This document shows positions 8,915 to 54,680 of a DNA stretch of 64,000 nucleotides, in pieces (position 1 is the first letter of the stretch; each line of letters begins with the position of its first letter). The DNA lies in IMG/VR virus record IMGVR_UViG_2740891848_000001, positions 17,840 through 81,839 of that record; one strand, written 5' to 3'. The notes under the pieces are model-generated. The model did not search any database. It was not told the origin of the DNA and was given only the letters and a program-made list of their open reading frames with translations. A program made the translations under genes and the position numbers. This DNA is from a virus. Lineage: Duplodnaviria > Caudoviricetes.

Positions 8915-9496
8915 TTACTGATAGAAGAAGATGTGCCCGTTCTCTTCCTGGAAGCCGTTGTGGCGCAGATCCCCGCTCCAGTAGTGTTCCCAGTCGATGT
9001 AGGAGAACATCGGGTGATCCTCTTTGATCATGCCCACGTCGACCGCCCAGTCTTCGGCGAAGTCTTTTGTGCTGTCCCATTTACCACGGTAGGCATCGCG
9101 GAACTGGGCGACCGTCACATCCGTCAGATCGCTGCCAGTCACCTGATTGACGAAAATCATAAAGGCTTCGATCTCGTCGTCGCTGCTCAACTCACTGAGC
9201 TGCTCCTCGATCGACGCTATCTCGGACATAGATGTGTATTCGCCGATCAGGCCGCTCGGGTAGCCTTCGTGATCGTGGATCGCGAACTCCTCTGAGCTGG
9301 GGACCATCGTGCCGGAGTCCTCCGGCCATTCAACTTCGACGTTCGGGAATCTACTGGTGATCAGAACCTTCTCGCGGATCTCGTTCATGAGTTCTTCTTC
9401 GTCCATGTCTTCGGTGTCGATCCAGGCACCGTGGAGCACGCCGTTGTTGTACGAAGCGAGACAGGCCACATAAATTCGACGGGTGGTAATAGTCAT
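8915..9496 (-). CDS. ardA: ArdA-family antirestriction protein
   Basis: RIYVACLASYNNGVLHGAWID and EEFAIHDHEG motifs; very acidic (DNA mimic). Confidence 0.88.
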   Translation of the reverse strand: MTITTRRIYVACLASYNNGVLHGAWIDTEDMDEEELMNEIREKVLITSRFPNVEVEWPEDSGTMVPSSEEFAIHDHEGYPSGLIGEYTSMSEIASIEEQLSELSSDDEIEAFMIFVNQVTGSDLTDVTVAQFRDAYRGKWDSTKDFAEDWAVDVGMIKEDHPMFSYIDWEHYWSGDLRHNGFQEENGHIFFYQ

Positions 9497-9534
9497 GATG
9501 TGGTGGTGATGATTTGTTAAGGACGAACGCATAG

Positions 9535-9603
9535 AGCGCGGGGCCAGCCGCGTTCACTACACGTTTTGAATGGGCGAAAAAACAGCGCGGGGCCAGCCGC
9601 GCT
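9535..9603. repeat. Two 18-bp direct repeats, each a GC hairpin with a GGCCAG/CTGGCC loop
   Basis: AGCGCGGGGCCAGCCGCG at 9535-9552 and 9584-9601, in the ardA leader. Confidence 0.85.
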
Positions 9604-9629
9604 GTGGAATTGGGTGCTGCGGGTGTTGC

Positions 9630-9857
9630 TTAGGCGCGAGCCATGTGCTCGCTTGCTTGGTGCTTCGCTGCCTGTTCATCCGCCGCAACTTGAGCAGCGA
9701 GACGGCGTTCGCGGTTCTTGAGAGCCACGACTCGCGCTTCCCAGTGCTCCTTCGAGGCCTCCGCATCGAGCCGTTCGAGCTGGCACTGCTTCAGTTGCGC
9801 CTTCGCCTCGCTTTGAGGGTTCTTAATAGGAAGAAAACTGGCCAGATAGTTCAGCAT
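9630..9857 (-). CDS. Hypothetical coiled-coil protein
   Basis: Start MLNYL with an AAAGGA RBS. Confidence 0.5.
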   Translation of the reverse strand: MLNYLASFLPIKNPQSEAKAQLKQCQLERLDAEASKEHWEARVVALKNRERRLAAQVAADEQAAKHQASEHMARA

Positions 9858-9929
9858 GATTGATCCTTTCATCTTGTGGTGGTGGTTGGTACTACGGGTG
9901 AAACTGACTTACACAGTGAAGCGTGGGGA

Positions 9930-11410: not shown

Positions 11411-11729
11411 GTCGTGCCTCCCGGATCGAGTTCGACTCGGCGAGATCTCCCCAGCAGCCAACCGTCATCGACAGGCCATGGAAGAGGATCGTGGTCGCGT
11501 AGGTATCGCCGGCATTGCAGTAGTACACGTCACAGCCTGTGCGGCGGTTCACGCCCAGGAACTCGACGCCGTGTGTTTCAATCAGGCGGTCGATCTGGCT
11601 ACGGGCTTCGCTGCGCCGTTGAACGGTCTTCCAAACCTCGCGCACTTTGGCAGCGATCTCGGGCGTCACGTCCTTGATTTCTTGCAGCCGCTTCGACGAA
11701 GCAGCGCGACGTTCAGAGAGCTGTACCAT
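11400..11729 (-). CDS. Hypothetical phage protein (Y.N.GDTY..T motif)
   Basis: 109-aa ORF coupled to both neighbours. Confidence 0.6.
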   Translation of the reverse strand: MVQLSERRAASSKRLQEIKDVTPEIAAKVREVWKTVQRRSEARSQIDRLIETHGVEFLGVNRRTGCDVYYCNAGDTYATTILFHGLSMTVGCWGDLAESNSIREARHDD

Positions 11730-12019
11730 TACTCTTCGTCCTCATCCTCGACGGGCACCAGGCGTTTGCCGGCGAAGTGGTCGTCGAGTGTCGCCTTGAC
11801 CTCCTTCGCCGCATCGCGCCATGCGAGCGCATTGATGAAACCGTTGTTGCCGATCTGCTCTACGGCCTGTTCGTCGGTTAGCGCGGCGACGACATCGGCG
11901 TGCTTTGCCAACGCATCCATGATGAAGAGCTGGACAATCGGTCCGCTCTTCGAGAATTCCATCAACTCGGCGATCGTCTCAGCGTTCGTCGCGTTACGCA
12001 TTTGTTGTTTCTTGGCCAT
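11729..12019 (-). CDS. Hypothetical phage protein
   Basis: 96-aa ORF with a CACCACCAC leader motif. Confidence 0.6.
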   Translation of the reverse strand: MAKKQQMRNATNAETIAELMEFSKSGPIVQLFIMDALAKHADVVAALTDEQAVEQIGNNGFINALAWRDAAKEVKATLDDHFAGKRLVPVEDEDEE

Positions 12020-12064
12020 GATTTACTCTGTGGTGGTGAGTGAATAACGTGCAGCTCTGCACTT

Positions 12065-12292
12065 TTAAAACAGTTGAATCTCCGCGCCGTGCAGCTTGTG
12101 GATCAGGCACTGCTGGGTGGCCCACTCCTCGGTTTCTTCGAGAGTTTCGATGCAGCGAGTGCGCGTCTCACGGCAGTAGTCGCGAACGACACCATCGTCA
12201 TTGCGGATCTTGAAGATCACCTGCCAGTTGGCGTTCTTCTTCCACTCGGACTTCAGGTCTTCTTCGTCGAAGCGGCGTGTGATTTCAGGCAT
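12065..12292 (-). CDS. Hypothetical phage protein
   Basis: Start MPEITRR with a GAGGAG RBS. Confidence 0.55.
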   Translation of the reverse strand: MPEITRRFDEEDLKSEWKKNANWQVIFKIRNDDGVVRDYCRETRTRCIETLEETEEWATQQCLIHKLHGAEIQLF

Positions 12293-13797: not shown

Positions 13798-14595
13798 TTA
13801 GTTCTTCGCTTTGTAGCGGTTCATTGCATTGATGAACCACGGTTTGAAAGGCTCGTTTACCGCGTCGAGGTTTTCGTGGGCGCGCGCAAAGTCCGGGTTT
13901 GCCGACATGTAGTGGAATCGGAGACCTTGAGGCCAACTCGCCTGGTAGACGAGGTAGTAGGAGATGTTCCCGACCAGCTCGTTGGCGACGATCTCGAAGC
14001 GCTTGCGCTTATACGTTTTGCGAATCGCTTCGTGGTGCGTCCACTCGTGCATCTCGCAGTGGCTGTTCTTCTCTTCATCCCGCAGCCAAACCCAAGCCTC
14101 GACGAAGCAGCCGTCTTCGCCGCGCGAGACACGAGCGTTGTCATTGATCTCGATGTCGTCGTCGGAACCCTTGGCGTACAGGTCGCGAGCGCGGTGGATC
14201 TCGTCGATCGTCGCTGGTTCTGGTTCAGGCTGCTGAATGCCGCCGTGTTCGTTCGCGTCGAACGATTCGACGCGGCCGAGGTCGGTGATGATCGCCAGCA
14301 TGTTCTCCTTGCGGAGCAGTAGGCCGTCGATCCGATAGCCCTGCTCTTCGATCATCAGCAGCGCTTTCTTGAGTGCCATCGTTGACGGCTCCAGCTGCGG
14401 CTGGGCGATGTAGGCGAGCGTGTTGCACTCCGGGCAGCGACCGGCTGGAGATGGGTGACCAGGGGTCAGGTTGCAGTCGTCGATTTCCTTCAGCTCGCTG
14501 AACGGCCCGACCCATGTGCAGTCGTCGCAATAGCAGGAGACGTTCGGATCAGGCTTGTCGATCTCGACCCGATAATCATATGGTGGGTGGCTCAT
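13798..14595 (-). CDS. Hypothetical protein with an N-terminal Cys cluster (CYCDDC...CPEC, putative Zn ribbon)
   Basis: 265-aa ORF with CxxC pairs. Confidence 0.6.
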   Translation of the reverse strand: MSHPPYDYRVEIDKPDPNVSCYCDDCTWVGPFSELKEIDDCNLTPGHPSPAGRCPECNTLAYIAQPQLEPSTMALKKALLMIEEQGYRIDGLLLRKENMLAIITDLGRVESFDANEHGGIQQPEPEPATIDEIHRARDLYAKGSDDDIEINDNARVSRGEDGCFVEAWVWLRDEEKNSHCEMHEWTHHEAIRKTYKRKRFEIVANELVGNISYYLVYQASWPQGLRFHYMSANPDFARAHENLDAVNEPFKPWFINAMNRYKAKN

Positions 14596-14864
14596 CCGTT
14601 GATCCTCAAGTTGTCGCGGGCGAAGTCTTCCGCTTCGCTAACGTCACTGTTCCAGTGGGCGATCATGTCGTAGATGCAGACCTTGTAGCCCTTCTTAAGC
14701 TCAAGTTCTGCGCAACGGTCGCGCTCACCCTCGGAGCTATAGACGTAGACGCCCTTGCCGCCGTTGTTAGCGTTCATCCACTCCAAGGCGTAGAACGTGC
14801 GTCGCTCGTCGCTCGTGATGTCGATGGTGTTGAGGCGCGGGATGTTTGGGTGGTTAAGGCCCAT
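14592..14864 (-). CDS. Hypothetical phage protein
   Basis: Start MGLNHP with a GAGGAG RBS and a TAATG overlap. Confidence 0.55.
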   Translation of the reverse strand: MGLNHPNIPRLNTIDITSDERRTFYALEWMNANNGGKGVYVYSSEGERDRCAELELKKGYKVCIYDMIAHWNSDVSEAEDFARDNLRING

Positions 14865-16938: not shown

Positions 16939-17235
16939 TTAGAGGAACGGGTAGATGATCGAACCTTCAAACTGCACGTCGATCGAGATCTTTGCGTTGT
17001 AGTCACGGCGAACGGCCCAAATGGTGGCGCCGGTTTCCTTCTCGAAGTCGCGCAGCATGGACTCGAACTTCAAGGCAAGCAGTTGCGCTGCCGTCTTGAT
17101 CTCGCGACCGTGGTACGGGGGTGGCGGCGGTACGTCTTTTACGAGGGAGAGCGTGGGAGCCGCTGCGCTCTGTTCGAGCGTTTCAGCGAGAACTTCAACT
17201 GCGGGTTGGCCAGCTTCGACGGTGGTGGTCGTCAT
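16939..17235 (-). CDS. Hypothetical phage protein
   Basis: 98-aa ORF with a GAGGA RBS. Confidence 0.55.
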   Translation of the reverse strand: MTTTTVEAGQPAVEVLAETLEQSAAAPTLSLVKDVPPPPPYHGREIKTAAQLLALKFESMLRDFEKETGATIWAVRRDYNAKISIDVQFEGSIIYPFL

Positions 17236-17283
17236 GATTTGATCCTCAAAATGTGCAATGTCTGCACGTTGTGGTGGTGGGTG

Positions 17284-17568: not shown

Positions 17569-17912
17569 TGCTTGGTCTCCTTGCGCAGCTTTGATGCTTT
17601 ACGTGCGCGCTTGGCTTTAGCTGCCTGAATGCGCAGATGATCCTGTTCAGTGAATTCCTTCACGGGCGCCGGTTTGGCCACGGCTTCGCGGCGGGTCGGG
17701 TAGATCGGGAAAGTTAGGTCGTGGCGTGTGAGCGATTGCAGGCGTGTGAGCTGTGCCATGCGGCTGTAATCGCCGCCTCCGATCACTACGACGCGCTCAG
17801 TGTCAGCAGGCCGCTCAAACTTGACATCAATGCCGTTCAGCTTCAGATCCTCAGCGATGCCTTCGAACGTCAGCTCGTCGTCAGTGAAAATGGCGATTCG
17901 TGTCTCGCTCAT
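17565..17912 (-). CDS. Hypothetical phage protein
   Basis: 115-aa coupled ORF. Confidence 0.55.
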   Translation of the reverse strand: MSETRIAIFTDDELTFEGIAEDLKLNGIDVKFERPADTERVVVIGGGDYSRMAQLTRLQSLTRHDLTFPIYPTRREAVAKPAPVKEFTEQDHLRIQAAKAKRARKASKLRKETKQ

Positions 17913-18175
17913 GCAGGCACCGCCTCAGTGATTGCGTATGTGTAGCGCGCCGAGCCGAGCTTGCCGTCCATTGTGATGACGATGCCGCACTGCGCGGAGA
18001 GACGGTTGATGAAGTCTTCGAAGCTGTGGAAGTTCCGCGTATCGACGTTCTCGACCATCATCTCTTCGAGCACGACATGAATCGCGGGGCCAGCGTAGGA
18101 AACTCTCTTCTTCATGTCAGCGAGCATGTCGCCGAAGAAGTGGAAGTATCCGATCGGGTTCGTGGTGGTGGACAC
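17909..18175 (-). CDS. Hypothetical phage protein
   Basis: 88-aa ORF, GTG start with an AAGGA RBS. Confidence 0.5.
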   Translation of the reverse strand: MSTTTNPIGYFHFFGDMLADMKKRVSYAGPAIHVVLEEMMVENVDTRNFHSFEDFINRLSAQCGIVITMDGKLGSARYTYAITEAVPA

Positions 18176-18210
18176 GAGTTTTGATCCTTGTAGAACGTGC
18201 AGTTCTGCAC

Positions 18211-18978: not shown

Positions 18979-19267
18979 AAAGCGGTTCGAGCGGCATGTG
19001 CATCGACATGTCGCTGAACTGCTTCAGATGACTCATGAGAACTCGCGGGTTCTGGCGGTTGGCCAGCATCGTGCGCAGCACGTTGTCGATGATGGCGAGC
19101 GCTGCCTGGTCAGTCACCGCGCCGTGCTCAGCTGCATAGAGCTTGAGCATCAATGCGCGCAGACGCGCCGGGATCGCGGTGTTGACTTCGTGCGCCGCGC
19201 ATTCAGCCATCGTCTTGAATTCGAGGCCGTCGCAGGAGCGGTAGCGTTTTAGTTCACGCATGATCAT
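18971..19267 (-). CDS. Hypothetical protein, paralog of 19254-19622
   Basis: Shared KRY...DG...HE...AIP..L..L pattern. Confidence 0.55.
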   Translation of the reverse strand: MIMRELKRYRSCDGLEFKTMAECAAHEVNTAIPARLRALMLKLYAAEHGAVTDQAALAIIDNVLRTMLANRQNPRVLMSHLKQFSDMSMHMPLEPLFA

Positions 19268-19622
19268 CCTCGTTCAGTCGACGCTCGATCACAGCCTGAA
19301 GCGGCGTAACGCCCTTCTCAGCCAGGATGCGTTGAGCAGTCCCACGGTTGGCACGCTCACGATCGAAGTCGCTCACCACTTCCGCGTTTTCAAGGAAGTC
19401 CGACAGGATGCCGATGACGTTCTGGGCGTCGCCGAGGATGGCATCAGCGATGCGTTGTGCGTCGTGATCGCTCAGATCGCTGATGCACTTTTCCTTGACC
19501 AGCTTCGCGAGTTGGTGGGGGATCGCGTAGGTGTATTCGTGGCGAATTGCCGCTTCGTGGTCGTCATGCCTCTGACCATCGCGCGTCTCATAGCGCTTGA
19601 TGACCTTCAGGTGCTTGTTCAT
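19254..19622 (-). CDS. Hypothetical protein, paralog of 18971-19267
   Basis: Shared KRY...DG...HE...AIP..L..L pattern. Confidence 0.6.
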   Translation of the reverse strand: MNKHLKVIKRYETRDGQRHDDHEAAIRHEYTYAIPHQLAKLVKEKCISDLSDHDAQRIADAILGDAQNVIGILSDFLENAEVVSDFDRERANRGTAQRILAEKGVTPLQAVIERRLNEDDHA

Positions 19623-19732
19623 TAGTCTTGATCCAGAGATTGGAGTTGTTCTTGAAGACGCAGCGGGTCAACCGGCAGTTCTTGCGAACGCAGGTATTCG
19701 CTGACCGTCTCGGCCAGAAAGTCAAAGCTCAT
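19622..19732 (-). CDS. 36-aa small ORF (MSFDFLAETVSEYLRSQELPVDPLRLQEQLQSLDQD)
   Basis: Manual translation; TAATG overlap with the next gene and CACCACCAC 9 nt upstream of the ATG; below the ORF-track size cutoff. Confidence 0.5.
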   Translation of the reverse strand: MSFDFLAETVSEYLRSQELPVDPLRLQEQLQSLDQD

Positions 19733-19774
19733 GTGATTTATGTGGTGGTGATTAAGTGCAGAGCTGCACTATTC

Positions 19775-20332: not shown

Positions 20333-20755
20333 CTACAGCACAGCGAGACCGACGATCACTACTGCGCAGAGGGCCAGCCCTGCGAAGATGATGCGGTCCC
20401 ACCTGGCTTGCGCCTTCTGCTCGGCCGGCGTCAGTTGCACGACGACGCGGTGCGAGACGGAGTAGGAGCGCAGGCGTCCTTCAAGCGTCGGATCGAAGAG
20501 GCCCGGAGCCGGAGCTGGAGCAGGAGCGCGGAGTGCGCGGACTGCTTCAGGAGCTGGAGCCGGAGCACTGCCTTTAGCTGAGGCAGAGAACGCTACGTCG
20601 ATCTGCTCGATGGATGCGAGCCATTGAGTCTTCTCGAAATATACGGTCGCACAGGGCGCAACAGCTGCCAGTGGCGTTGGAGCTGTAGCGCGTTTCGTGT
20701 GACTGCGCACATTCGAGGAGTGCAAGGATAGCGGAAAAACGTTGGAAGTTTTCAT
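20333..20755 (-). CDS. Hypothetical protein with Pro/Ala linkers and a C-terminal transmembrane anchor
   Basis: APAPAP tracts; C-terminal IIFAGLALCAVVIVGLAVL. Confidence 0.55.
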   Translation of the reverse strand: MKTSNVFPLSLHSSNVRSHTKRATAPTPLAAVAPCATVYFEKTQWLASIEQIDVAFSASAKGSAPAPAPEAVRALRAPAPAPAPGLFDPTLEGRLRSYSVSHRVVVQLTPAEQKAQARWDRIIFAGLALCAVVIVGLAVL

Positions 20756-20766
20756 GTGTGGTGGTG

Positions 20767-21252
20767 AACTATCAGATAGTTGTGAGATTCGACCGCGCGG
20801 GCCAGCGCGCTGGGGTCAAAAACGGTGTGCGAATAGACTTTCGATTTTTACTTCTTAAGGACACTTATCTCTATCTGATAATTGACGTCCTCACTCGTGG
20901 ATCGACTTTGAAAGTCTATTCAACACCCCCTTCTCTTTTCTTGGGGGAAAGGGAAGGAAGAAAAAGAAGAAGAAGTAGGAAGCTAAGAGATTGATTTGAA
21001 GGGCGAAAAACGCCGCTTTCAGAACTATCTGATAGTTTGCGCACGGCGCGATGTTTTGCCCGTGGTCTGACACAACGAGCTTGTGGTCTCCAAGTGGGTT
21101 ATCACTGGGGCTGGAGCGCAACGGCGACTTATCCACAACTGCGGAGCCTCCCGGTTACGCGTTGGACACTCAACCCATAGGTGGAACAACGCTACCCCTC
21201 CACCGCACGCGACATCCACACGCTTCACTCGCCGCGCCAACTATCAGATAGT
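20767..21252. promoter_or_regulatory. Non-coding control region with AACTATC-W-GATAGTT palindromes
   Basis: Perfect copies at 20767-20781 and 21023-21037, near-perfect at 21239-21252, partial at 20871-20880. Purine tract at about 20941-20990. Confidence 0.65.
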
Positions 21253-22630: not shown

Positions 22631-22958
22631 TGTAGAAACTCCAGTAATAAGCGCTTCATTGCGCCGATTAAGCCAGTATGAAAAGTGCAGCTCTGCACTT
22701 TCCTTCTCTTTGTCAAAAGTGCAGACGCTGCACTTTTGAACATTGCGGGCGCACGAATGCCGACCCGCAGCAGACCCATAGGTGGTGGTGGTCTGCTTCG
22801 CTCTCCCGTCAGGGATTAGTAACACTATACCTAGATATTATTGTGAGGGGAAGTGGCTGGATGCCGATTACGCCAAACCCATTAATTCTAAAATTTCAGA
22901 TTTTCCAACCTAGGTATAGTATTATTTAAAATATTCACCACAGATTCAGGAGCGGCAC

Positions 22959-23522
22959 TTGGCCAAAGAGAAGTTCACTAGGGAACAGTTCACTGTCGAG
23001 CTTGCGAAAGAGTGGTTTTCGTATGATACGAACGCAGGACTTGTTATCCGCATCAAGAATCCGACGCGTGGGCCTAAGACGGCCGGCACACGCGCTGGAG
23101 CGCTCCACAAGCCCAGTGGGATGCGCCAGGTCATCTTCCAAGGCGTGAGCGTCTACGAGCAGCAGCTGGTCTGGGCGCTAGTCACCGGCGAGTGGCCCGC
23201 AGGCAAGCTAAAGTTTAAGGACGGAGATCCGTTAAACACCCGTTTTGACAATCTATGCGCGGCGGCGAACACCGCGGAGAGTTACGAAGCATTACATTCT
23301 GGCACTGAGTTGGGGCAGACACCTCTCTCGGGAGTAGTTCCTACCTCAAGCGGGAAATTTAAGGCTCAAATTTTTCGCGAGTGGATGATCTATCTAGGAA
23401 CGTTTGAGACACCGGAGTTAGCTAGTGAAGCATACTTGCGGGCCAAGTCAGTCCTTCACTCTCCCCTGAACAGGGCCAAGTCGACACACGAACTCTTGGA
23501 AGAGCTATCAGAGTCTCCTTAA
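22959..23522 (+). CDS. HNH-like/AP2 DNA-binding protein (homing endonuclease-derived)
   Basis: WPAGKLKFKDGDPLNTRFDNL (degenerate HNH) plus AP2-like GKFKAQI...YLGTFETPELASEAY; TTG start with an AGGAG RBS. Confidence 0.75.
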   Translation: MAKEKFTREQFTVELAKEWFSYDTNAGLVIRIKNPTRGPKTAGTRAGALHKPSGMRQVIFQGVSVYEQQLVWALVTGEWPAGKLKFKDGDPLNTRFDNLCAAANTAESYEALHSGTELGQTPLSGVVPTSSGKFKAQIFREWMIYLGTFETPELASEAYLRAKSVLHSPLNRAKSTHELLEELSESP

Positions 23523-23577
23523 GAGTTCCTGATGCACCTTAGTATCATCTTGAATCACAAATTTGCAACTTGAAAGC

Positions 23578-23606
23578 TTGCAAAGGACTTTGGAGATGTT
23601 TATAGT
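23578..23606 (+). promoter_or_regulatory. Sigma70-type promoter
   Basis: TTGCAA (23578-83), 17-bp spacer, TATAGT (23601-06). Confidence 0.6.
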
Positions 23607-23609
23607 TCG

Positions 23610-23778
23610 GTCTCAAGTGCTGCGTGATCTGTGGTGGTGAGCGCAGCAGCTGAGACGCCAGTCTCAGTCATGACTTAGGGGTGGCCAGCTCCGAAGTCGA
23701 CCGTCCTAGACGGTAGTTTTGATCCATTGTAGAAGCTCAAAAAGCCCATCCGATTAGCTATCGAATGGGCTTTTTCCT
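23610..23778 (+). ncRNA. Putative structured small RNA, C4/CI-like antisense RNA candidate
   Basis: No ORF between the promoter and terminator. Hairpins: TGCTGCG/CGCAGCA (23618-48) around TCTGTGGTGGTGA; GACTT-a-GGGGT/GCTCC-g-AAGTC (23672-98) around GGCCA; ACCGTC/GACGGT (23700-14). Confidence 0.6.
23739..23775. terminator. Bidirectional rho-independent terminator
   Basis: AAAAAGCCCAT...ATGGGCTTTTT, between the sRNA and the convergent primase gene. Confidence 0.8.
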
Positions 23779-23869
23779 TTTCAACCTACGAATTGTCATT
23801 CAAGTGTGCGAACTGCTGTGTTTACATACAGTAGTCAGTAGTCGTTCTCTTTGTTGAACACTTGAACGT

Positions 23870-26389
23870 CTAGGCGGTGACGGGCTGCTCTCCAGAATGG
23901 TCCTTCGTCGTACTCGACGCACTCCCCGCTCCCACAAGTGTGAGGTTCTTGTACTCGACGGACTGCCCGCCCATCGGAGTGTGTTCGATCGTAAGTTTGA
24001 ATCCGAACTCGGTAGCCAATTCCCTCATCTTTGCTCTGAACTGAGTCGATCCAACAGGCCGCGCAGACCCCGGCCCGACGCAGAAGGACCAATATGCCTG
24101 ATAGAGCTTCGTTTCCGTGACGGATGTGGGGGTCGAAGTCTTCGACCCAGCGGACTCCGCTTCTTGGAGAGCGTGAATCCGCACCTTCCCGCTCTCCATG
24201 AGAAAAAAACGTACGCTGTTGTTCAGGTTCGCTACCTCACGCATGATTTGCGTATGCGAAGCGGGAATCGTGAACTCGTTTAGCGTCTTCAACCGTCCCA
24301 TCGACTGTACCGCCCACGCAACGATGGCCTCACGCTCCTCAACCACGATCGCGTCACCGAGATCGAGCCGGCGCTCGGATGCTTTCACTGGCCGATTGAA
24401 CTGGAACACGAGCCAGCGACGATTGAAACCCTCTGACGTGTCTTCCGTACGTGGGTAGTGGTTCGATGCAAACCAGTGCGTGCAGATAGGATTGAAGCGA
24501 AAAATCTGACCTCCTTTCATCTGGCCCGACATCTCAGCCCCGTCGATGATGTCCTTGAACTTCTGACCATCGACAGTCTTCTTTTCCGACAGCTCGCCAG
24601 CCACGTTGATGATCTTCTCAAACATCTGCGTGGGCAAAAACTTGTCACTCCACTCGTTAGGCGGCACCGCCGAACGAGCGGAGTCTGGTACGAGAGCTTG
24701 TGCGATCTTCAAAAGCTGCGATTTCCCAGACTTAGGGGCGCCTTGGAGCAAAACCGCACGTTGATAACGCGGCCCCAAACCAAAAAGCGTGACTGCCAGC
24801 GCTTCCTGAATAGCATCCACTTTTTGGAGATAATCGTCGTCCTCACCCCAGCTTTTGTGAAGAAAGTCGAAAAACATCGACGATTTACCTGCCGCCTCAG
24901 GCAAATAACGGAACGGCAACGTATATGTCATGCCGTAACCGAGGTCGTGGGGCAGCAATTTGAGGTCTTCCGTGAGAAAACCATTGGCGAAATTGACGCC
25001 CTTCACGTCGACCGTCTTAATCCCTTGGGTCATGAGCATTTTCATGACCTGAAAGACGCCGCGAATGTCGTTGAATTTCTTGCACGCCGCTAGATGGCCA
25101 TAGTCCGAGCTGATCTTCGACATAATGTACGTGTCGTCCACCTTCTCCCAGTGTGAGCCTGCCCACTTCCACACGAAGCCGTTGTGAGAGCGAACTTGGA
25201 ACAGCTGCTCCAGATCCTTGATCACCGCGCGAGCGATCTCAGACTGGTCCTGGCCCTTGATGTCACCCATGCGCAACTCTTTGATGCGCGCTTTCAAACT
25301 CGAGACCTTCACGCCGAGACCCGAGGTCATCGCGATGAACTCAAGCAGGCGGTCCTCTTCGAGCTTATTCAGCCCGGTGGTCGTGGCCACCTTCTGCAAT
25401 GCCTTGTCCACCGACGAAGAACGACCCGGCGATTCCTTCGGAAAACGCTCGAACTCGTCGATCAGAAACTGCTTCAGATCCTCAAACGACCACTCCTCCT
25501 GGTCCTTCGTAATCTCCAAACCCCAGGCTTCCTTCTCCTCGCCAGTCATGCCCTCGTCCCAGCCGGTCGGCAGCACCTTCTGCTTTTCGAACACGTCCCG
25601 TTGCAGGAACTTGATCATGTTGCGGACGTGCTTGTCTACGTCGATCGGGTCGCCCGCAACGTTCTCGACGAAGTCGGCCGCGTACGCCTGAAGCATGCCG
25701 ATCGCTTCCTTCAGGCTACGGTCACCGCGAATCACCGCGTACGCGAAGAGGCCCGCACGCTCGGTCAGCGACGTGTCGCGCGAGCCGGCCGACGCATAGT
25801 CAATCACGCGCGTCCAACCGGAGTGCGACAGCTCGACGCCGGCCTCGGTGAGCGCGGCCCGCAGAAGCGCCTCAATGTTCTCGTCGAGAGGCACCAGATT
25901 CTTGTGAACGTCGACGAGGTCACAGCTCGCCTGGTAAGGGAGTTGCGTATCCGGGTGAATCGACGGAGGCAGCACCGACTGCGTGCGTGCGGAAAGCATT
26001 TCACAGATTGTCTCGCCGCTCGTGTTCTTGATCCGGAAAGTCTTCACGCCAGAGTAGCGGAACGCGAGCATCGCGCCCTTCTTGCCGATACGGCGCCACG
26101 GAGAAGGCGGCAGCAGTTGCTCGATCACGTTCATCAACCGGATGTCTTCCGTGTCGATGTCCATCATGACGATGCCAGACTGCGGGCCGAGCACGATACC
26201 GATGTTCGAATCACGGCACTGCTCGATCCAACTGGCTTGTTGCTCCGGTTCCACCGGATGATCGAAGTAACGCGACCAGTCGTTCGGGATCGGCTTCTTT
26301 TCGCGCGGATAAAGCGGGATGACCGGGAGACCCGCCGCGTAGTAGCGCGGCGCGGTCTGGGCAAAGATGGGTTGGCGTTCGGTCTTCAT
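23870..26389 (-). CDS. Bifunctional primase-polymerase (prim-pol) fused to a D5/P4-type SF3 helicase
   Basis: N-terminal PVIPLYPREKKP...NIGIVLG...MDID, Walker A GAPKSGKS, WFASNHYP...GFNRRW. Confidence 0.88.
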   Translation of the reverse strand: MKTERQPIFAQTAPRYYAAGLPVIPLYPREKKPIPNDWSRYFDHPVEPEQQASWIEQCRDSNIGIVLGPQSGIVMMDIDTEDIRLMNVIEQLLPPSPWRRIGKKGAMLAFRYSGVKTFRIKNTSGETICEMLSARTQSVLPPSIHPDTQLPYQASCDLVDVHKNLVPLDENIEALLRAALTEAGVELSHSGWTRVIDYASAGSRDTSLTERAGLFAYAVIRGDRSLKEAIGMLQAYAADFVENVAGDPIDVDKHVRNMIKFLQRDVFEKQKVLPTGWDEGMTGEEKEAWGLEITKDQEEWSFEDLKQFLIDEFERFPKESPGRSSSVDKALQKVATTTGLNKLEEDRLLEFIAMTSGLGVKVSSLKARIKELRMGDIKGQDQSEIARAVIKDLEQLFQVRSHNGFVWKWAGSHWEKVDDTYIMSKISSDYGHLAACKKFNDIRGVFQVMKMLMTQGIKTVDVKGVNFANGFLTEDLKLLPHDLGYGMTYTLPFRYLPEAAGKSSMFFDFLHKSWGEDDDYLQKVDAIQEALAVTLFGLGPRYQRAVLLQGAPKSGKSQLLKIAQALVPDSARSAVPPNEWSDKFLPTQMFEKIINVAGELSEKKTVDGQKFKDIIDGAEMSGQMKGGQIFRFNPICTHWFASNHYPRTEDTSEGFNRRWLVFQFNRPVKASERRLDLGDAIVVEEREAIVAWAVQSMGRLKTLNEFTIPASHTQIMREVANLNNSVRFFLMESGKVRIHALQEAESAGSKTSTPTSVTETKLYQAYWSFCVGPGSARPVGSTQFRAKMRELATEFGFKLTIEHTPMGGQSVEYKNLTLVGAGSASSTTKDHSGEQPVTA

Positions 26390-26943
26390 GCGTTCTCTTC
26401 TGTGGTGGTGTCAGTCGCGTCATCGTCAGCTGCTGCTGAACGGGCCAGGACGCTCCTAAGTCGATCCATAACGTCCGTACGCTGGTCAGGCGATAGGACT
26501 TCTTCCATGATCGTGAGTACGGTGTCCTGGAAGTCTTTGATCTGCTTGACTCCAAGCGCGCGCTCACGAGCATTAACAAGGCGTTCCAACAAACTGGTCG
26601 CGGTGCGGAAATACGCCATCCGCTCCGTTTGATCTGATGCCGCTATGCCCTTGCCGTAGTTCTTCAGCTCCGTAAAGACGCTGTGAAGGTCACTAGCAAG
26701 CGTGCTGTCAATTTCATCCTCGGAAACTGGGGTTGATGGAGGCTTTTGATCCTCTGTCGGCTTGTTCATCACTTGCCAACCCTGTCGGAATGAGACGACT
26801 TCATTGACGAACTGCTTCGTCTTCGGGTCGTACGGACATTCTGTGTCATTGAGGTATTCGCGGTCCTCGATAGTCAGCGTGACAGCAGTGTGCAACGCCC
26901 ATCCAACGAGGGCATCAATGTAGGGGTAGTGGCGTTCGCTCAT
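26386..26943 (-). CDS. Hypothetical helical protein
   Basis: Start MSERHYP; 4-nt overlap with the primase gene. Confidence 0.6.
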   Translation of the reverse strand: MSERHYPYIDALVGWALHTAVTLTIEDREYLNDTECPYDPKTKQFVNEVVSFRQGWQVMNKPTEDQKPPSTPVSEDEIDSTLASDLHSVFTELKNYGKGIAASDQTERMAYFRTATSLLERLVNARERALGVKQIKDFQDTVLTIMEEVLSPDQRTDVMDRLRSVLARSAAADDDATDTTTEENA

Positions 26944-27117
26944 GATTGATCCATTGAAGAAGTGCGAGAATATTCGGTTCCGCACATAAGGAAAATGAAA
27001 ATCAGCGGCACTATCAGATAAAAACGCACAACTATCGTCTGATTGCGAACATACATTTTTTCTTTGTGTTGTGTCGAAGCCTCACTGAGAATAGCGCCTG
27101 ATCCAAAGGTCTCCTCA

Positions 27118-31694: not shown

Positions 31695-32102
31695 ATGAGC
31701 AACGTAATCGGTAATGGCGTATCGCTTCGTGGGATGTACCACGACGACTTCCAATACCCGTTCCTGCTCGCCGCTGGCATCACCAAGGCCGATGAAGGTA
31801 AGGCTGTCACTGTCGATACGAGTGCAGTGAACACGGTGAAGTTGGCAGGCGACGGCGATCGGATCATTGGGCGTCTGGAAGTGGTTGAAGTCCGCGTCCA
31901 GGAGGGCATCAACATCGGCACCGTGTCGATCATGGGCGGTCTGGACTTCCCGGCGAAAGCGGGCTATGTCCCGGCAGCTGGCGACAACCTGGTTGGCGCA
32001 GCAGGCGGATTGGTCAATAAGGCAGGCGCGGGCGTGAGCACCGGCTGGATCTTCTTGGGCGAACTCAGCCCGACCGGCAACCCAGTCCTGGTCAAGCTGT
32101 AA
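31695..32102 (+). CDS. Head decoration/cement protein
   Basis: 135-aa Gly-rich beta protein between the protease and capsid genes. Confidence 0.5.
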   Translation: MSNVIGNGVSLRGMYHDDFQYPFLLAAGITKADEGKAVTVDTSAVNTVKLAGDGDRIIGRLEVVEVRVQEGINIGTVSIMGGLDFPAKAGYVPAAGDNLVGAAGGLVNKAGAGVSTGWIFLGELSPTGNPVLVKL

Positions 32103-32110
32103 AGCTGCCG

Positions 32111-32189
32111 GCCCTGTCCACCACCAGGGCTGTCAGTGACCGAAACGTAAGAAGAAGCTGCTGGACCCGTCCACCACCGGGGCCAGCAG
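32111..32189 (+). promoter_or_regulatory. Tandem leader hairpins with identical TCCACCAC loops
   Basis: GCCCTG-tccaccac-CAGGGC (32111-30) and CTGCTGG-a-CCCG-tccaccac-CGGG-g-CCAGCAG (32158-89). Confidence 0.65.
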
Positions 32190-32220
32190 TGGTTGAACCC
32201 AACACCACAATGGATCAAAC

Positions 32221-33458: not shown

Positions 33459-33481
33459 CATTGAACTGACCACCACACATC

Positions 33482-33814
33482 ATGCAAAAAATCATCGCCC
33501 ACACCACCGGCAAGTTTCAGCTGATCGACCAGCTGAGCGGCGACCTGATCTCCGCGCACCGCCCCTCCGTGATCTCGAAGACCCCCTTCGTGACTGCACG
33601 ACTTGGTCTCGACCAAGTCGTGATCGTCGCGGAAGTAAAGCCCGAGGCGACGGATGAAGAGTTCGCCAAGCACTGGAAGGAGGCCAACGGCGACATGGAT
33701 CTCGCGGTCGAATCGTTCCTGTCGAAGTTCGGCCTCGACGCAGACGGCGAGCCGGAAACCCCGCGTACGACCGCGCGCGGCGGCAGGAAGCAAACCTCCG
33801 CTGCCACCGAATAA
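33482..33814 (+). CDS. Hypothetical virion morphogenesis protein
   Basis: 110-aa ORF with an ACCACCAC leader. Confidence 0.6.
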   Translation: MQKIIAHTTGKFQLIDQLSGDLISAHRPSVISKTPFVTARLGLDQVVIVAEVKPEATDEEFAKHWKEANGDMDLAVESFLSKFGLDADGEPETPRTTARGGRKQTSAATE

Positions 33815-37468: not shown

Positions 37469-37502
37469 AAGCCACACGACTGTAAAGTCGTGTGGCTTTT
37501 TC
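37469..37502 (+). terminator. Rho-independent terminator
   Basis: AAGCCACACGAC-tgtaaa-GTCGTGTGGCTTTTT. Confidence 0.85.
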
Positions 37503-37519
37503 ATTGGATCACCACCACC

Positions 37520-37957
37520 ATGACCACCACCATTCAAAAACGCCAAGCGCCTGACCCGCGCTTCAAAGTCAAGGTCAACGGCGAAGAGCGTACACTTTTC
37601 ATGTCGTTCGGCTTGCTCAACGAGATCTGTCGCGCGATCGGCGGTCTCGAAGCCGCCATCCAGATCCCGGTCGACAACGAACTGCGCGACTATAGCCTGC
37701 TGGCTGTGCTCTCGACGCGTGACGCAGAAGGGCACGTCGCGGAAGGCGGCGCTATCAACCTGCGCACTCTCGACATCGCAATCGACGATGTCGAAGAACT
37801 GCTGGCGTGGATCACCGATCACGTCACTGATTTTTTTCTGCGGACGATGGAGAGAGTCGTCACGGGTCAGAGAAAGAACGAAGAGCGGTTCCTGGCTCTC
37901 GCGAAAAACAAAAAGCCGGAAGACTCACAGCCTACACCGACTGGTTCCGCGGCCTAA
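37520..37957 (+). CDS. Tail assembly chaperone (lambda G-like)
   Basis: Lies between the tail tube and tape measure genes. Confidence 0.65.
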   Translation: MTTTIQKRQAPDPRFKVKVNGEERTLFMSFGLLNEICRAIGGLEAAIQIPVDNELRDYSLLAVLSTRDAEGHVAEGGAINLRTLDIAIDDVEELLAWITDHVTDFFLRTMERVVTGQRKNEERFLALAKNKKPEDSQPTPTGSAA

Positions 37958-50637: not shown

Positions 50638-50688
50638 GGCGCGCTGGCCCGCGCCCGTAAAATTCGGATAGCGAAAGGACACCACCAC
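50638..50688 (+). promoter_or_regulatory. Leader with a CTGGCC-loop hairpin followed by CACCACCAC
   Basis: GGCGCG-ctggcc-CGCGCC (50638-55), AAGGA SD, CACCACCAC (50680-88), ATG at 50690. Confidence 0.65.
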
Positions 50689-50689
50689 G

Positions 50690-52135
50690 ATGCAAGAATT
50701 TCAGCAGATACCAGACAGTCAGCGGATCTCCGACTCGCTCGCGCCGCTGCTAAACAACGACCTCACCGCGATCTCGCGGAATGCTGGCCAAGCGTACCCG
50801 ACCACTGGCCTGGTCGTGGGCATGCCGTATCTCAGCACGCAAGAAAACAAGCTCTACCGGCTGGCCAGCCTGTCTCCGATCACTTGGACTCTGGAGCTGG
50901 ACTTTAATCGCGCGATGGCATATGCGGATGATGTAGCTGCTGCGGTGGCGAACGCCAATGGGCGCGTGTCCCGTGGCGGCGACACAATGACTGGCTACCT
51001 CACACTCAACGGCGATCCGACGCAGGCACTGCACGCGGCACCGAAGCGCTACGTGGACGCGCAGCGCGACGCGGCGATCGCTATCGCCAACCTGGCGATG
51101 CAGCGGTCGGGCGGCACGATGACCGGCCCGCTGCTGCTTTCCTCGGACCCGACGCAGCCAGCGCAGGCCTCGACGAAGAACTACACCGACTACCTCTACA
51201 ACGCGCTGAATAACGCGAAGTTGAACCGCAGCGGCGACACGCTCGGAGAGGTTTACAACAACGGCTGGTATCGCTCGAATGGAGCGGTGGGCTGGTTCAA
51301 CCAGACCTACGGCGGCGGCATCTTCATGCAGAACTCCGGCTACGTGTCGGTCTATGGCGGCAAGGGCTTCTCGACCGACACTCACACGCTGGAGCAAGGG
51401 ACTGGTGGGATCTGGACTTCACGCTATGGGTGGCTGGAGAACCGCTTCGCGGCAAAGGACGCAGAGGGGGCGCTTACCTCGGTCGGGACAGTAGACAAAG
51501 CCGGTGGCAACGTCTCGTGGCCTGCCGGCTTCTACCTACAGCAGAGCGGCCGACAGGTCCAGCTGGTCCGGACCTCGACCAACTGCAACTGCAACTGCGC
51601 CTGCACCTGTTTCCCGGCTGGCACGCGGATCATGATGGCCGACCGCTCCTGGAAGAACGTCGAGGACATCGTCGTCGGCGACGTGCTGATGACGCCGCTC
51701 GGCCCCGAATCCGTGCTCGATGTCGAGACGCCAAAACTAGGCGACCGCTGGATGGTTGGCTTCGAAGACGAGCCCTTCCGCTGGACCGACGACCACGCCT
51801 TCTGGACGCGCCGACACGGCGAGCAGGGGCTGGGTGTCTACGACAAGGAGTCGTGGCTGAACGGTGTGCACGCAGGCGTGGTCAAGGGGCTTCCCGACAA
51901 TGATGACGTTCGTCTTTTGGACGACCGCTCGGACGAATTCGCGCACATCTCCGGTTGGAAGCGTAAGACGCTGGCTCGCTTCCCCTACCCGTCACAGACG
52001 CCAGTCTACCTGCCGATCGTCGGCGGTTGCCACATGATCATCGCGGAAGGCTACGTGGTCTCGGCCGGTGCGGACGGCTTCGATTTCGACTACAGCACCT
52101 TCAACTGGGAGGGTTTGAAAGATGCTGCTGCATAA
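50690..52135 (+). CDS. Tail fibre with a Cys-rich NCNCNCACT motif and a C-terminal Hint domain
   Basis: xGDTMTGxL fibre repeats and a PilV/fibre-like NGWYRSNG..GW.N..YGGG segment. Hint block A CFPAGT (Cys307, nt 51608), block B WTDDH, block F-like VYLPIV.GCHMIIAEGYVV. Confidence 0.8.
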   Translation: MQEFQQIPDSQRISDSLAPLLNNDLTAISRNAGQAYPTTGLVVGMPYLSTQENKLYRLASLSPITWTLELDFNRAMAYADDVAAAVANANGRVSRGGDTMTGYLTLNGDPTQALHAAPKRYVDAQRDAAIAIANLAMQRSGGTMTGPLLLSSDPTQPAQASTKNYTDYLYNALNNAKLNRSGDTLGEVYNNGWYRSNGAVGWFNQTYGGGIFMQNSGYVSVYGGKGFSTDTHTLEQGTGGIWTSRYGWLENRFAAKDAEGALTSVGTVDKAGGNVSWPAGFYLQQSGRQVQLVRTSTNCNCNCACTCFPAGTRIMMADRSWKNVEDIVVGDVLMTPLGPESVLDVETPKLGDRWMVGFEDEPFRWTDDHAFWTRRHGEQGLGVYDKESWLNGVHAGVVKGLPDNDDVRLLDDRSDEFAHISGWKRKTLARFPYPSQTPVYLPIVGGCHMIIAEGYVVSAGADGFDFDYSTFNWEGLKDAAA

Positions 52136-52826
52136 GTCCCTGATCCCCGCCACTCTCGCGGGAGATGATCTGAAGAAAGTCGGCGCGGTAGCCACCGCGA
52201 TTGCGACGCCCACCGGCTTCGTGGTCAGCTGCAAGGAACTGTCGCTCTACTGGCAGTTCGACTTGCAGAAAGTCGAGTTCGGGCTCGATGTCTTGCATCT
52301 GGTAAAGAGCCGCACGGGTCAGTACGTGCCGGTCTGGGGTAGCGATCTTCACGAGTCGAAGGATAGCTGGTCGAGCTGCATGTTCCGCAAGAACCTCGAC
52401 TCATTCCAGCCTGTTTGCATCGTCGGGGTTGCCGCCGACAAGAAGAGCTTCACCGTGGTCTTCTTCGTCAACACGCAAGAACCGAACAACCCGACGCCGC
52501 AGGAGGATAGCTCCACGGATTCGGGTGACATGCTGCTAAAGCGCGTGATGCCCGAGCTGGCTCCGACCATCGACCGCTGGCACGCGAAGCACAAGCTGCT
52601 GAAGGACACGAAGACGAACGACTCCCTCGCCGCGCTCGAAGCACAAGTGGATCTACTCACGCAGTGGGTCTCCGCGTTGATCCCCGACGAGTACCGCCAG
52701 AAACTCCTTGACGCTGGTGTGCTGAAACTGAAGGATACGAAGATCGTTGTCGATGACGTGGTCGCGTTCAAAACCGCGCTCCGCGCGCGGCAGGAAACCT
52801 ACCTCACCACCACAGAGCAGCAATGA
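52122..52826 (+). CDS. Hypothetical protein coupled to the fibre and radical SAM genes
   Basis: 234 aa; overlaps the fibre stop (14 nt) and the rSAM start (ATGA). Confidence 0.7.
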   Translation: MLLHKSLIPATLAGDDLKKVGAVATAIATPTGFVVSCKELSLYWQFDLQKVEFGLDVLHLVKSRTGQYVPVWGSDLHESKDSWSSCMFRKNLDSFQPVCIVGVAADKKSFTVVFFVNTQEPNNPTPQEDSSTDSGDMLLKRVMPELAPTIDRWHAKHKLLKDTKTNDSLAALEAQVDLLTQWVSALIPDEYRQKLLDAGVLKLKDTKIVVDDVVAFKTALRARQETYLTTTEQQ

Positions 52827-54172: not shown

Positions 54173-54546
54173 ACGAAGCCCCACAACCCCTCGACGCCCA
54201 GCCGCTGATCGACGCGCTGACGCGCCAACGTAACGAGCAAATGGACCGCGTCGCACACGCGGAGGCCGCGCTGTTCACCACGCAGCAGGCTCTTCAAACC
54301 GCGCTCGCTTCGAGCGCGAAGGTTCAGTCGATGCTCGACGACACGCTGGTCGCAATGCAACAACAGCAGGATCTGAATGAACTGAACAAGATTGAGCAAG
54401 AGCGCGCGACCGTTGGCCTGCGCGAGCAGGTCAAGAACCTCCAAGACCAACTCGCCGCGCACCAGGCTGTGCCGGCGACCGCACCGAGCGGCATCGTGAT
54501 CCCGCCGCTCGGCACGCTGCCCGAAGCCAACGCGATTACCGCCTGA
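54169..54546 (+). CDS. Gln-rich coiled-coil protein
   Basis: 125 aa with an ATGA overlap with the rSAM gene. Confidence 0.65.
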   Translation: MNEAPQPLDAQPLIDALTRQRNEQMDRVAHAEAALFTTQQALQTALASSAKVQSMLDDTLVAMQQQQDLNELNKIEQERATVGLREQVKNLQDQLAAHQAVPATAPSGIVIPPLGTLPEANAITA

Positions 54547-54598: not shown

Positions 54599-54680
54599 GT
54601 TTGCTGTGCGAAGAAACTCTTTGTATTGAGTTTTCACGGCCAATAAAATTTCGGCACTCACCACCACCACAGAGTGCTTC

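Follow-up and report, generated by a model that had tools for sequence, protein, structure and literature searches.

A candidate phage small RNA complementary to the translation start regions of many genes: a probable genome-wide regulator of translation

In the stretch of phage DNA analysed here (the window: 64 kb, bases 17840–81839 of an 81.8-kb IMG/VR provirus record, 58.6% G+C), the segment 23523–23869 has an HNH gene on the plus strand at one side and the 3' end of a convergent primase-helicase gene on the minus strand at the other, and it carries no plus-strand open reading frame (ORF) of at least 30 aa between 23523 and 23764. The original prediction had placed here an ORF-less small RNA (sRNA) with a sigma70-like promoter, several hairpins and a strong terminator, and each of these elements is indeed present:

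23578–23606, plus strand: sigma70-type promoter, read in the sequence as the hexamers TTGCAA (23578–83) and TATAGT (23601–06) with a 17-nt spacer
23613–23778, plus strand: putative sRNA transcript of about 166 nt (about 165 in the original prediction), its 5' end placed from the -10 box and its 3' end from the terminator U-run
23618–23648, plus strand: hairpin P1, with an 8-bp stem (23618–25 with 23641–48) and a 15-nt loop; 3 of 8 pairs compensatory, 100% of cells paired
23625–23641, plus strand: seed A, UGAUCUGUGGUGGUGAG, complement of the leader motif CUCACCACCACAGAUCA; the 16-mer GATCTGTGGTGGTGAG is identical in 11/11 full-length homologues found via the primase
23649–23668, plus strand: hairpin P2, which differs among homologues in both sequence and length
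23672–23698, plus strand: hairpin P3, whose invariant loop UGGCCAG (23682–88) is the complement of the CUGGCC loops of leader hairpins; 8 of 9 pairs compensatory, GUGGCCAGC invariant
23700–23714, plus strand: hairpin P4, flagged as terminator-like together with the following U-run; 4 of 5 pairs compensatory
23715–23730, plus strand: seed B, the single-stranded AGUUUUGAUCCAUUGU, complement of CAAUGGAUCAAAAC at Shine-Dalgarno positions; its core GUUUUGAUC is conserved
23739–23775, plus strand: intrinsic terminator with the conserved loop UAGCUA; 7 of 13 pairs compensatory

The predicted fold of four hairpins and the terminator has a free energy of -68.8 kcal/mol (z = -4.6), and none of 200 shuffled sequences was as stable. 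Three conserved elements remain unpaired in it, namely the seed A loop UGAUCUGUGGUGGUGAG, the loop of P3 (loop 3, UGGCCAG) and the seed B single strand GUUUUGAUCC. The loop of P1 (loop 1, 23626–23640) is closed by a U.G pair (23625/23641) and contains UCUGUGGUGGUGAG, and the U.G pairs in P1 identify the plus strand as the RNA strand. Across the homologues the consensus of loop 1 is (U/C)GAUCUGUGGUGGUGAG, the 16-mer GAUCUGUGGUGGUGAG being the same in every member even though primase identity falls to 78%. Seed B proper (23717–26) lies between P4 and the terminator and has the consensus GUUUUGAUC(C/A). The terminator is bordered by an A-run as well as a U-run, such that it may also terminate the convergent primase gene. 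An alignment of the promoters of the 12 homologues shows conservation of both the -35 element (TTGC) and the -10 element (TA.A.T).

The sRNA was also recovered in eleven other IMG/VR phage contigs and in one prophage of Burkholderia paludis, always just 3' of the primase gene. A scan of IMG/VR with the 16-nt loop sequence gave 20 matches, 11 of them homologous loci, and the primase protein, used as an independent query, led back to the same phages. A covariance model, R1, built from 12 sequences scores 155 bits on 23611–23778 of the window and 125–174 bits immediately downstream of the primase gene in 11/11 contigs with a complete RNA, while two more contigs end inside the RNA and give partial matches; it matches at this same primase-adjacent position in every relative with 78–96% primase identity. 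The original prediction had proposed an examination of covariation across related phages, and the outcome speaks for it: in the alignment of 12 homologues, compensatory changes are seen in 22 of the 35 base pairs and support four helices, and 89% of cells are paired as against 33–53% with the partners slid, values that no shuffle attains. On sequence evidence, then, the segment 23613–23778 is a genuine structured non-coding RNA gene, and we infer that it is actually transcribed. As is typical of trans-acting base-pairing sRNAs, it forms its own transcription unit with a promoter and an intrinsic terminator and without an ORF, and it combines a conserved fold with seeds that are invariant or nearly so.

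This family appears to be new to the resources that were searched. Scanning the whole 64 kb against Rfam gave no match at the gathering score, and among the matches at E<=10 over 23300–24000 nothing relevant was found, only four chance matches (trpB, snoZ5, mir-17 and mir-1298), so that the models of the C4 type by which the original prediction was to be checked returned nothing at either level. Likewise, blastn of the sRNA locus against 50,697 phage records gave no match, the literature search found no description of this RNA or of its motif, and an IMG/VR pattern scan anchored on loop 3 and seed B yielded 88 stretches with no new family member and no variant seed A. Of 95 genomes of Burkholderia species, one carries the sRNA, namely the one bearing the prophage. 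A second copy of the sRNA was considered on the basis of weak R1 matches at 12012–12169 of the window and at 45–210 of L038; these are target leaders read antisense and not paralogues.

Gene content and relationships place the phage itself among the JWF-like temperate phages of Burkholderia. Encoded in the record are a tyrosine integrase, a DNA ligase, PolA, ArdA and a Hint-bearing tail fibre, and the nearest cultured relatives by protein search are the Achromobacter phages JWF and 2-1, siphoviruses of about 82 kb, with 74% identity in the capsid and 68–70% in the primase. A primase-protein scan of genome contigs found a single prophage, a close relative (82% primase identity) integrated in a 290-kb contig of B. 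paludis MSh1; this and the tyrosine integrase are the grounds for calling the phage temperate. R1 has no match in JWF, in 2-1 or in the related contig G005 (61% primase identity), which consequently serve below as RNA-less outgroups.

The original prediction had noted that the first loop is a perfect 14-nt complement of two leaders, and these two sites, at 12027–40 (minus strand) and 52803–16 (plus strand), are in fact the only ones that match all 14 nt. They considerably undercount the likely targets, which number about 25–30 and, as that prediction had held, are scattered across 80 kb of the genome; it had also made no mention of the second pairing element GUUUUGAUCC (23717–26). Allowing up to two mismatches, the complement of the 14-mer has 9 sites against 0.43 expected (0 of 100 shuffles), and of the eight outside the RNA gene seven lie directly 5' of an ATG on the coding strand. 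The core of the complement, CACCACCAC, lies in the mRNA sense 1–18 nt before about 18 start codons. Its exact copies in the 81.8-kb genome number 24, of which 14 are within 25 nt upstream of a start in the sense orientation and one in antisense (about 1.1 expected, P ~1e-11), though these and the other start-site counts given here depend on crude gene calls, made in-house from codon usage and with several possible starts for each gene. The seed A targets for which positions were tabulated are:

9499–9511, minus strand: before the ArdA anti-restriction gene (8915–9496), with CUGGCC-loop hairpins at about 9537–9552 and about 9582–9605
12027–12040, minus strand: perfect 14-nt target, 7 nt before the ATG of ORF 11729–12019
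19739–19752, minus strand: 6 nt before a 36-codon ORF (19622–19732)
20755–20768, minus strand: abutting the ATG of ORF 20333–20755, with a CUGGCC-loop hairpin at about 20795–20810
26399–26412, minus strand: before the primase gene (23870–26389), with a CUGGCC-loop hairpin at about 26436–26453; conserved in the relatives G001, G003 and G004
33466–33479, plus strand: 2 nt before the ATG of ORF 33482–33814
37510–37518, plus strand: 1 nt before the ATG of 37520–37957, the orthologue of the JWF tape-measure chaperone
50638–50689, plus strand: tail-fibre (Hint) leader, with a GGCGCG-CUGGCC-CGCGCC hairpin followed by GGA and CACCACCAC directly before the ATG at 50690
52803–52816, plus strand: perfect 14-nt target, 6 nt before the ATG of the radical SAM gene 52823–54172
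54659–54673, plus strand: 5' end of the short leader of the endolysin gene (54681–55211), just 3' of a TAAAAT -10 box

The genes so marked include those for the integrase, ligase, ArdA, primase, capsid, tail chaperone, tail fibre, radical SAM enzyme and endolysin as well as many small ORFs. The duplex of seed A with the leader of ORF 11729–12019 is predicted at -26.8 kcal/mol, and the motif consensus extends to CUCACCACCAC(A/G)GAUCA, matching the whole 17-nt loop. The words most enriched upstream of starts are hexamers of the CACCAC type; in the RNA-less G005 they are of the AAGGAG type. More generally, CACCACCAC sites number 1–4 in the RNA-less relatives (JWF, 2-1 and G005) as opposed to 14–24 in the RNA-bearing genomes, and orthologous leaders that have an ordinary Shine-Dalgarno sequence (GGAG or AGGA) in the former have the A motif in the latter, many of them without a Shine-Dalgarno sequence. 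All the RNA-bearing phages belong to a single clade, so that the joint presence of RNA and motif counts as a single evolutionary event, one co-gain, and not as repeated evidence. Seed A, whose complements are enriched beyond chance, very likely pairs with the leader motif; since it is invariant in every known member, the case for this pairing is one of complementarity, placement and co-occurrence and not of covariation. The 16S rRNA was also considered as the natural partner of the A motif and was set aside, the longest complement in Burkholderia 16S rRNA being only 6 nt.

The complement of seed B, GGAUCAA, is found at the Shine-Dalgarno position of about ten further genes, where it takes the form GGAUCAA(A/G)AC 2–6 nt before the start, a spacing that makes the GGA of the motif the Shine-Dalgarno sequence itself. 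Its tabulated positions are:

9860–9887, minus strand: leader with both seed A and seed B motifs, before ORF 9630–9857
14599–14605, minus strand: before 13798–14595
17239–17245, minus strand: before 16939–17235, with a seed A motif at 17270–17279
18181–18187, minus strand: before 17909–18175
19628–19634, minus strand: 5 nt before the ATG of 19254–19622
26946–26952, minus strand: GGATCAA, 2 nt before the ATG of 26386–26943
32200–32218, plus strand: major capsid leader CAACACCACAAUGGAUCAA, with an A-like motif and the seed B target, 2 nt before the ATG at 32221
54156–54162, plus strand: before 54169–54546

The predicted duplex of seed B with the capsid leader has -17.4 kcal/mol. Several leaders have both motifs, for instance that of the ligase gene, which reads CACCACCACAAUGGAUCAAGAC-AAU-AUG. 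Where A and B stand side by side, their 5'-to-3' order is the same as that of the two seeds in the RNA, which means that the arrangement is not a simple antiparallel one. Targets occur at the starts of internal genes of long operons and at operon starts.

Seed B, furthermore, changes together with its targets. In the relative G004 a U-to-C change in seed B gives an RNA reading GUUUCGAUCC, and the leaders have GGAUCGA instead of GGAUCAA: GGATCGA stands at seven of its starts and GGATCAA at one, as against 3 and 22, respectively, in the other four RNA-bearing genomes summed (Fisher p = 2e-4). The corresponding A-to-G change is seen in at least four orthologous leaders, namely those of the capsid gene, of a 59-aa ORF before polA and of the orthologues of 9630–9857 and 17909–18175. 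The whole-genome counts of GGATCGA and GGATCAA do not differ, and hence composition does not explain this result. The flanks of seed B likewise follow the leaders: in G001 the RNA has CAUGUUUUGAUC, complementary to GAUCAAAACAUG in four of six leaders with the AUG covered, and in G000 it has GAUCCAUUG, complementary to CAAUGGAUC in five of twelve. A matrix of RNAduplex energies for each phage's seed B against each phage's start regions was dominated by GC-rich flanks. Co-evolution of seed and targets, a mark of the sRNA class, is accordingly seen for seed B, and its predicted pairing with leaders is well supported.

The third element, GGCCAG (23683–88), which the original prediction had described as exposed by a second loop, does lie in the P3 loop UGGCCAG, with the qualification that RNAalifold pairs the outer bases of this loop, making the exposure less certain. 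Hairpins with a CUGGCC loop occur 25–45 nt upstream of leaders with the seed A motif five times in G000 (0.36 expected) and three times in G001 (0.17 expected); the stems differ around a fixed loop. In the leaders of the primase, the tail fibre, ArdA and ORF 20333–20755 the order 5'-CUGGCC...CACCACCAC-3' fits antiparallel two-point pairing. The two-point order that had been proposed holds for a subset of targets, five CACCACCAC leaders; CUGGCC-loop hairpins are absent upstream of both perfect 14-nt sites. A further pair of hairpins was seen in tandem before the capsid gene, displaying CCACCAC; the genome-wide count of such structures is confounded, since allowing G.U pairs favours the antisense strand.

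These patterns lead to a reading that we hold to be probable on balance: a trans-acting phage RNA pairs with, and occludes, the translation start regions of about 25–30 phage mRNAs. Under it, a free-standing phage gene with a constitutive-looking sigma70 promoter would give rise to a structured RNA of about 166 nt, whose seed A in loop 1 would pair with the C/A-rich CACCACCAC(AGAUCA) 1–18 nt before start codons and whose seed B would pair with GGAUCAA(A/G)AC, covering the Shine-Dalgarno GGA and in some relatives the AUG, while loop 3 could kiss the CUGGCC hairpin loops 25–45 nt upstream in a subset of leaders. The outcome would be occlusion of the start regions, and probably destabilisation, of these mRNAs, among them those for the integrase, ligase, ArdA, primase, capsid, tail chaperone, tail fibre, radical SAM enzyme and endolysin. 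Motifs complementary to the sRNA mark the ribosome-binding sites of roughly a quarter to a third of the phage genes, and one RNA probably controls translation genome-wide. At most targets the motif is inside the ribosome footprint, where it replaces the Shine-Dalgarno sequence. The position of every pairing site within the 30S footprint makes occlusion of the translation start the most likely effect; together with the coverage of some AUGs, the variable distance from the A motif to the AUG (1–18 nt), which fits occlusion and not a fixed positioning of the ribosome, and the strong duplexes (-17 to -27 kcal/mol), it favours a block of initiation as with C4, sar and GcvB. A sigma70 promoter so close to the consensus, in a phage that is temperate, suggests that lysogens express the sRNA. 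It would there keep leaky mRNAs of the lytic, lysis and integrase genes silent and so add a second lock, at the post-transcriptional level, to lytic and excision functions; it could also confer cross-immunity to incoming relatives that share the invariant seed, or act as a threshold timer. Repression rather than activation, and its timing, are what we infer from these features.

The same RNA and the same pairing might conversely have a positive effect, being needed to translate or stabilise leaders that have CACCACCAC and no Shine-Dalgarno sequence, either as an adaptor, with one seed holding the mRNA and the other, Shine-Dalgarno-like seed holding the 16S 3' tail, or by protecting 5'-proximal leaders from RNase E. 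Its appeal stems from the capsid, endolysin and primase genes, which need high expression and at which the A motif has replaced the Shine-Dalgarno sequence while JWF and G005 keep GGAG or AGGA: the loss at highly expressed genes such as those for capsid and endolysin makes their translation puzzling and leaves room for an activating or adaptor role. Moreover, weak duplexes with the Burkholderia 16S tail GGAUCACCUCCUUU are possible for seed A (by GGUGGUGA, -10.8 kcal/mol) and for seed B (by UGAUCC, -9.8 kcal/mol), and several short leaders have the A motif at their very 5' end, immediately behind a -10 box. Yet the leader duplexes, at -17 to -27 kcal/mol, are far stronger than those with the 16S rRNA, the variable spacing from motif to AUG speaks against precise ribosome positioning, and all the pairing sites fall within -20 to +3 of the start, in G001 on the AUG itself. 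To our knowledge, sRNA pairing in that interval blocks initiation in all characterised cases, and we know of no precedent for a Shine-Dalgarno sequence supplied in trans. A positive effect is hence rather unlikely, and it is decidedly unlikely that the sRNA is in particular an obligatory trans-acting adaptor, and not a repressor, that bridges leaders to the ribosome or otherwise licenses them. In such a scheme about a quarter to a third of the clade's genes would have traded the Shine-Dalgarno sequence for motifs resembling the 16S 3' tail (UCACCACCAC, GGAUCA), each seed of the sRNA would resemble part of an extended Shine-Dalgarno sequence, and the phage would possess a private translation initiation code under its own control.

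An alternative that places the ribosome or a protein at the centre takes CACCACCAC to be mainly a ribosome-independent or protein-recognised leader element, e.g., a C/A-rich enhancer of translation, or a site at which a translational regulator or a transcription factor of the phage binds, with the RNA regulating just the few leaders with long perfect matches or competing with the factor. C/A-rich leader elements are known translational enhancers, among them those of GcvB targets, and the motif does replace the Shine-Dalgarno sequence; moreover, seed A never varies, so covariation does not prove its pairing, and only two sites match all 14 nt. We nevertheless judge this unlikely, as the motif is nearly absent from related phages without the RNA, its consensus CUCACCACCAC(A/G)GAUCA matches the entire 17-nt loop, and the adjoining B element co-evolves with the same RNA; besides, enhancer and RNA-target roles are compatible, as they are for GcvB. 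Very unlikely, too, is an RNA that guides processing or decay, with RNase III or RNase E cleaving the duplexes so that polycistronic transcripts are matured or destroyed at gene boundaries: the targets at internal gene starts of long operons as well as at operon starts and the duplexes of 14–17 bp, long enough for RNase III, would suit it, but the sites fall on ribosome-binding sites rather than on intergenic processing sites in general, and it overlaps with occlusion, which decay usually follows. That the locus is no functional RNA and merely a terminator region with a chance antisense copy of a repeated leader element could be argued from the bidirectional look of the terminator between convergent genes. 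It is extremely improbable in view of the conserved promoter, the four helices that covary with strand-specific U.G pairs and the loops, which stay conserved among phages with up to 22% difference in the flanking proteins; the minus-strand motifs, about 95 nt apart, are also in the wrong order for a leader.

Returning to occlusion by base pairing, the best reading is that the sRNA works like C4 or GcvB while being homologous to neither. The original prediction had classed it as an antisense RNA of the C4/CI kind, and the likeness is real in that loops are complementary to phage leaders; membership in that class did not stand, given the lack of an Rfam match and a gene that is free-standing outside any target operon. 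C4 RNA of P1/P7 has its gene in the leader of the very operon under its control (icd-ant) and is processed from that leader, and P4 CI RNA, which is matured by RNase P, acts by premature transcription termination in the leader of the alpha operon. With these the present RNA shares its phage origin, its ORF-less structured nature, the temperate lifestyle of the phage, and short loop elements that pair with elements of phage leaders, one of them overlapping a ribosome-binding site. The two-point arrangement is likewise that of C4 in a subset of targets, where, in five leaders of G000 and three of G001, loop 1 faces CACCACCAC at the ribosome-binding site and loop 3 faces the CUGGCC loop in antiparallel orientation. 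It departs from them in having no sequence or structure homology (no Rfam match at E<=10), its own conserved promoter in place of processing from the transcript of a target operon, three recognition elements, target motifs that replace the Shine-Dalgarno sequence, and about 25–30 targets over early, late, lysis and integration modules as opposed to one operon; its pairing sites fall at ribosome-binding sites rather than at terminators.

A parallel might also be struck with GcvB, which likewise directs a G/U-rich seed to C/A-rich elements in and just 5' of many ribosome-binding sites and has several seeds, a large regulon and a Rho-independent terminator. GcvB is enterobacterial and Hfq-dependent, and its gene is located next to gcvA; the present RNA is not homologous to it (no match to Rfam RF00022), is borne by a phage and directed at phage genes, has its seed A in a hairpin loop, and is co-inherited with its targets on one 82-kb genome, with which it co-evolves. 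T4 RegA resembles it in that a single phage-encoded factor reads a short motif placed at the translation starts of many mRNAs of its own phage, although RegA is a protein repressor and the recognising factor here is an RNA that base-pairs. The small RNAs sar of P22 and OOP of lambda act in the lysis-lysogeny circuit by post-transcriptional repression of phage genes, but they are cis-encoded and fully complementary to a single target, whereas the present RNA is encoded in trans and addresses many targets through short seeds. Its scope is, in sum, closer to that of GcvB or T4 RegA than to that of the single-operon immunity RNAs.

The regulatory RNAs known from phages, such as C4, CI, sar, OOP, aQ and the others listed in PMC12197685, are each directed at a single gene or operon. 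Here, one RNA appears to be wired to the starts of a quarter to a third of the phage genes, in every functional module, and its targets appear to have given up the ordinary ribosome-binding sequence for a motif complementary to it, such that it would be the RNA counterpart of a global translational repressor. This is relevant to the silencing of leaky lytic genes by temperate phages, to cross-immunity among related phages of the Burkholderia cepacia complex, and to initiation without a Shine-Dalgarno sequence in a host that relies on such sequences elsewhere. It may also provide a natural example of a seed locked in place by its many targets, with seed A being 100% conserved while the neighbouring proteins diverge by 22%.

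Several leader and intergenic elements bear on the targets of the phage small RNA, whose first loop (seed A) is complementary to an A motif lying upstream of phage start codons, and on the organization of its own gene; their positions in the window are as follows:

12049-12062 and 19757-19770, minus-strand leaders: GTGCAG-N2-CTGCAC palindromes, adjoining the seed-A leaders of the early region on their upstream side
22959-23522: HNH gene with a TTG start, directly upstream of the small-RNA gene
32109-32132 and 32160-32185, plus strand: a pair of hairpins in tandem, each with a UCCACCAC(C) loop, in the interval separating gene 31695-32102 from the capsid gene
37502-37519: tail-chaperone leader, UUGGAUCACCACCACC-AUG
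50656-50667 and 54632-54645: -10-like element (C/A)(G/A)TAAAAT(T)TCGG, common to the upstream regions of the tail-fibre and endolysin genes
50690-54546: four-gene block coding for a Hint-domain tail fibre, a 234-aa protein of unknown function, a radical SAM enzyme and a 125-aa protein

The -10-like element is a candidate late promoter, with orthologues in three related RNA-bearing phages (G001, G003 and G004) and in the cultured Achromobacter phage JWF, which keeps it as TAAAAT / TAGAAT. From this predicted promoter, the transcript start would fall just upstream of the A motif in the RNA-bearing phages. The four-gene block is likewise conserved in JWF, and in the phage under study three of its four genes have A motifs or B motifs (GGAUCAA at the Shine-Dalgarno position). 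Ahead of the capsid gene, the tandem hairpins could serve either as loop-loop kissing partners of seed A or as terminators modulated by it; the same loop type (CCCACCACC) is seen on a different stem in a relative (L038 160-200, minus strand). With their 2-nt spacer, the early-region palindromes resemble operators bound by a dimeric protein more closely than they do RNA hairpins.

The leader motifs resemble the anti-Shine-Dalgarno sequence, and the small-RNA seeds resemble a Shine-Dalgarno sequence. The tail-chaperone leader matches the E. coli 16S 3' end at 10 consecutive nt (UUGGAUCACC), and it has 9 nt (UGGAUCACC) in common with the Burkholderia 16S, which reads CUGGAUCACC. A separate observation concerns the related phage G002, where the leader of the ORF 9630-9857 orthologue (L054 69464-69511, minus strand) contains some 16 CAC/CACCAC repeats in a row, followed by GGGATC and the ATG; this run is an A motif expanded in microsatellite-like fashion.

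Within the small-RNA gene, hairpin P4 followed by AGUUUUGAUC (23700-23726) was flagged as terminator-like, and the gene may therefore yield a shortened RNA, about 110 nt long and without most of seed B (the single strand between P4 and the terminator); the U-run after P4 is interrupted in G004 (GUUUCGAUC). The leader of the upstream HNH gene (22925-22958) has a variant motif, TTCACCACAGATTC, and then a normal AGGAG. The corresponding position in JWF is occupied by two HNH genes, and the small-RNA gene is absent.
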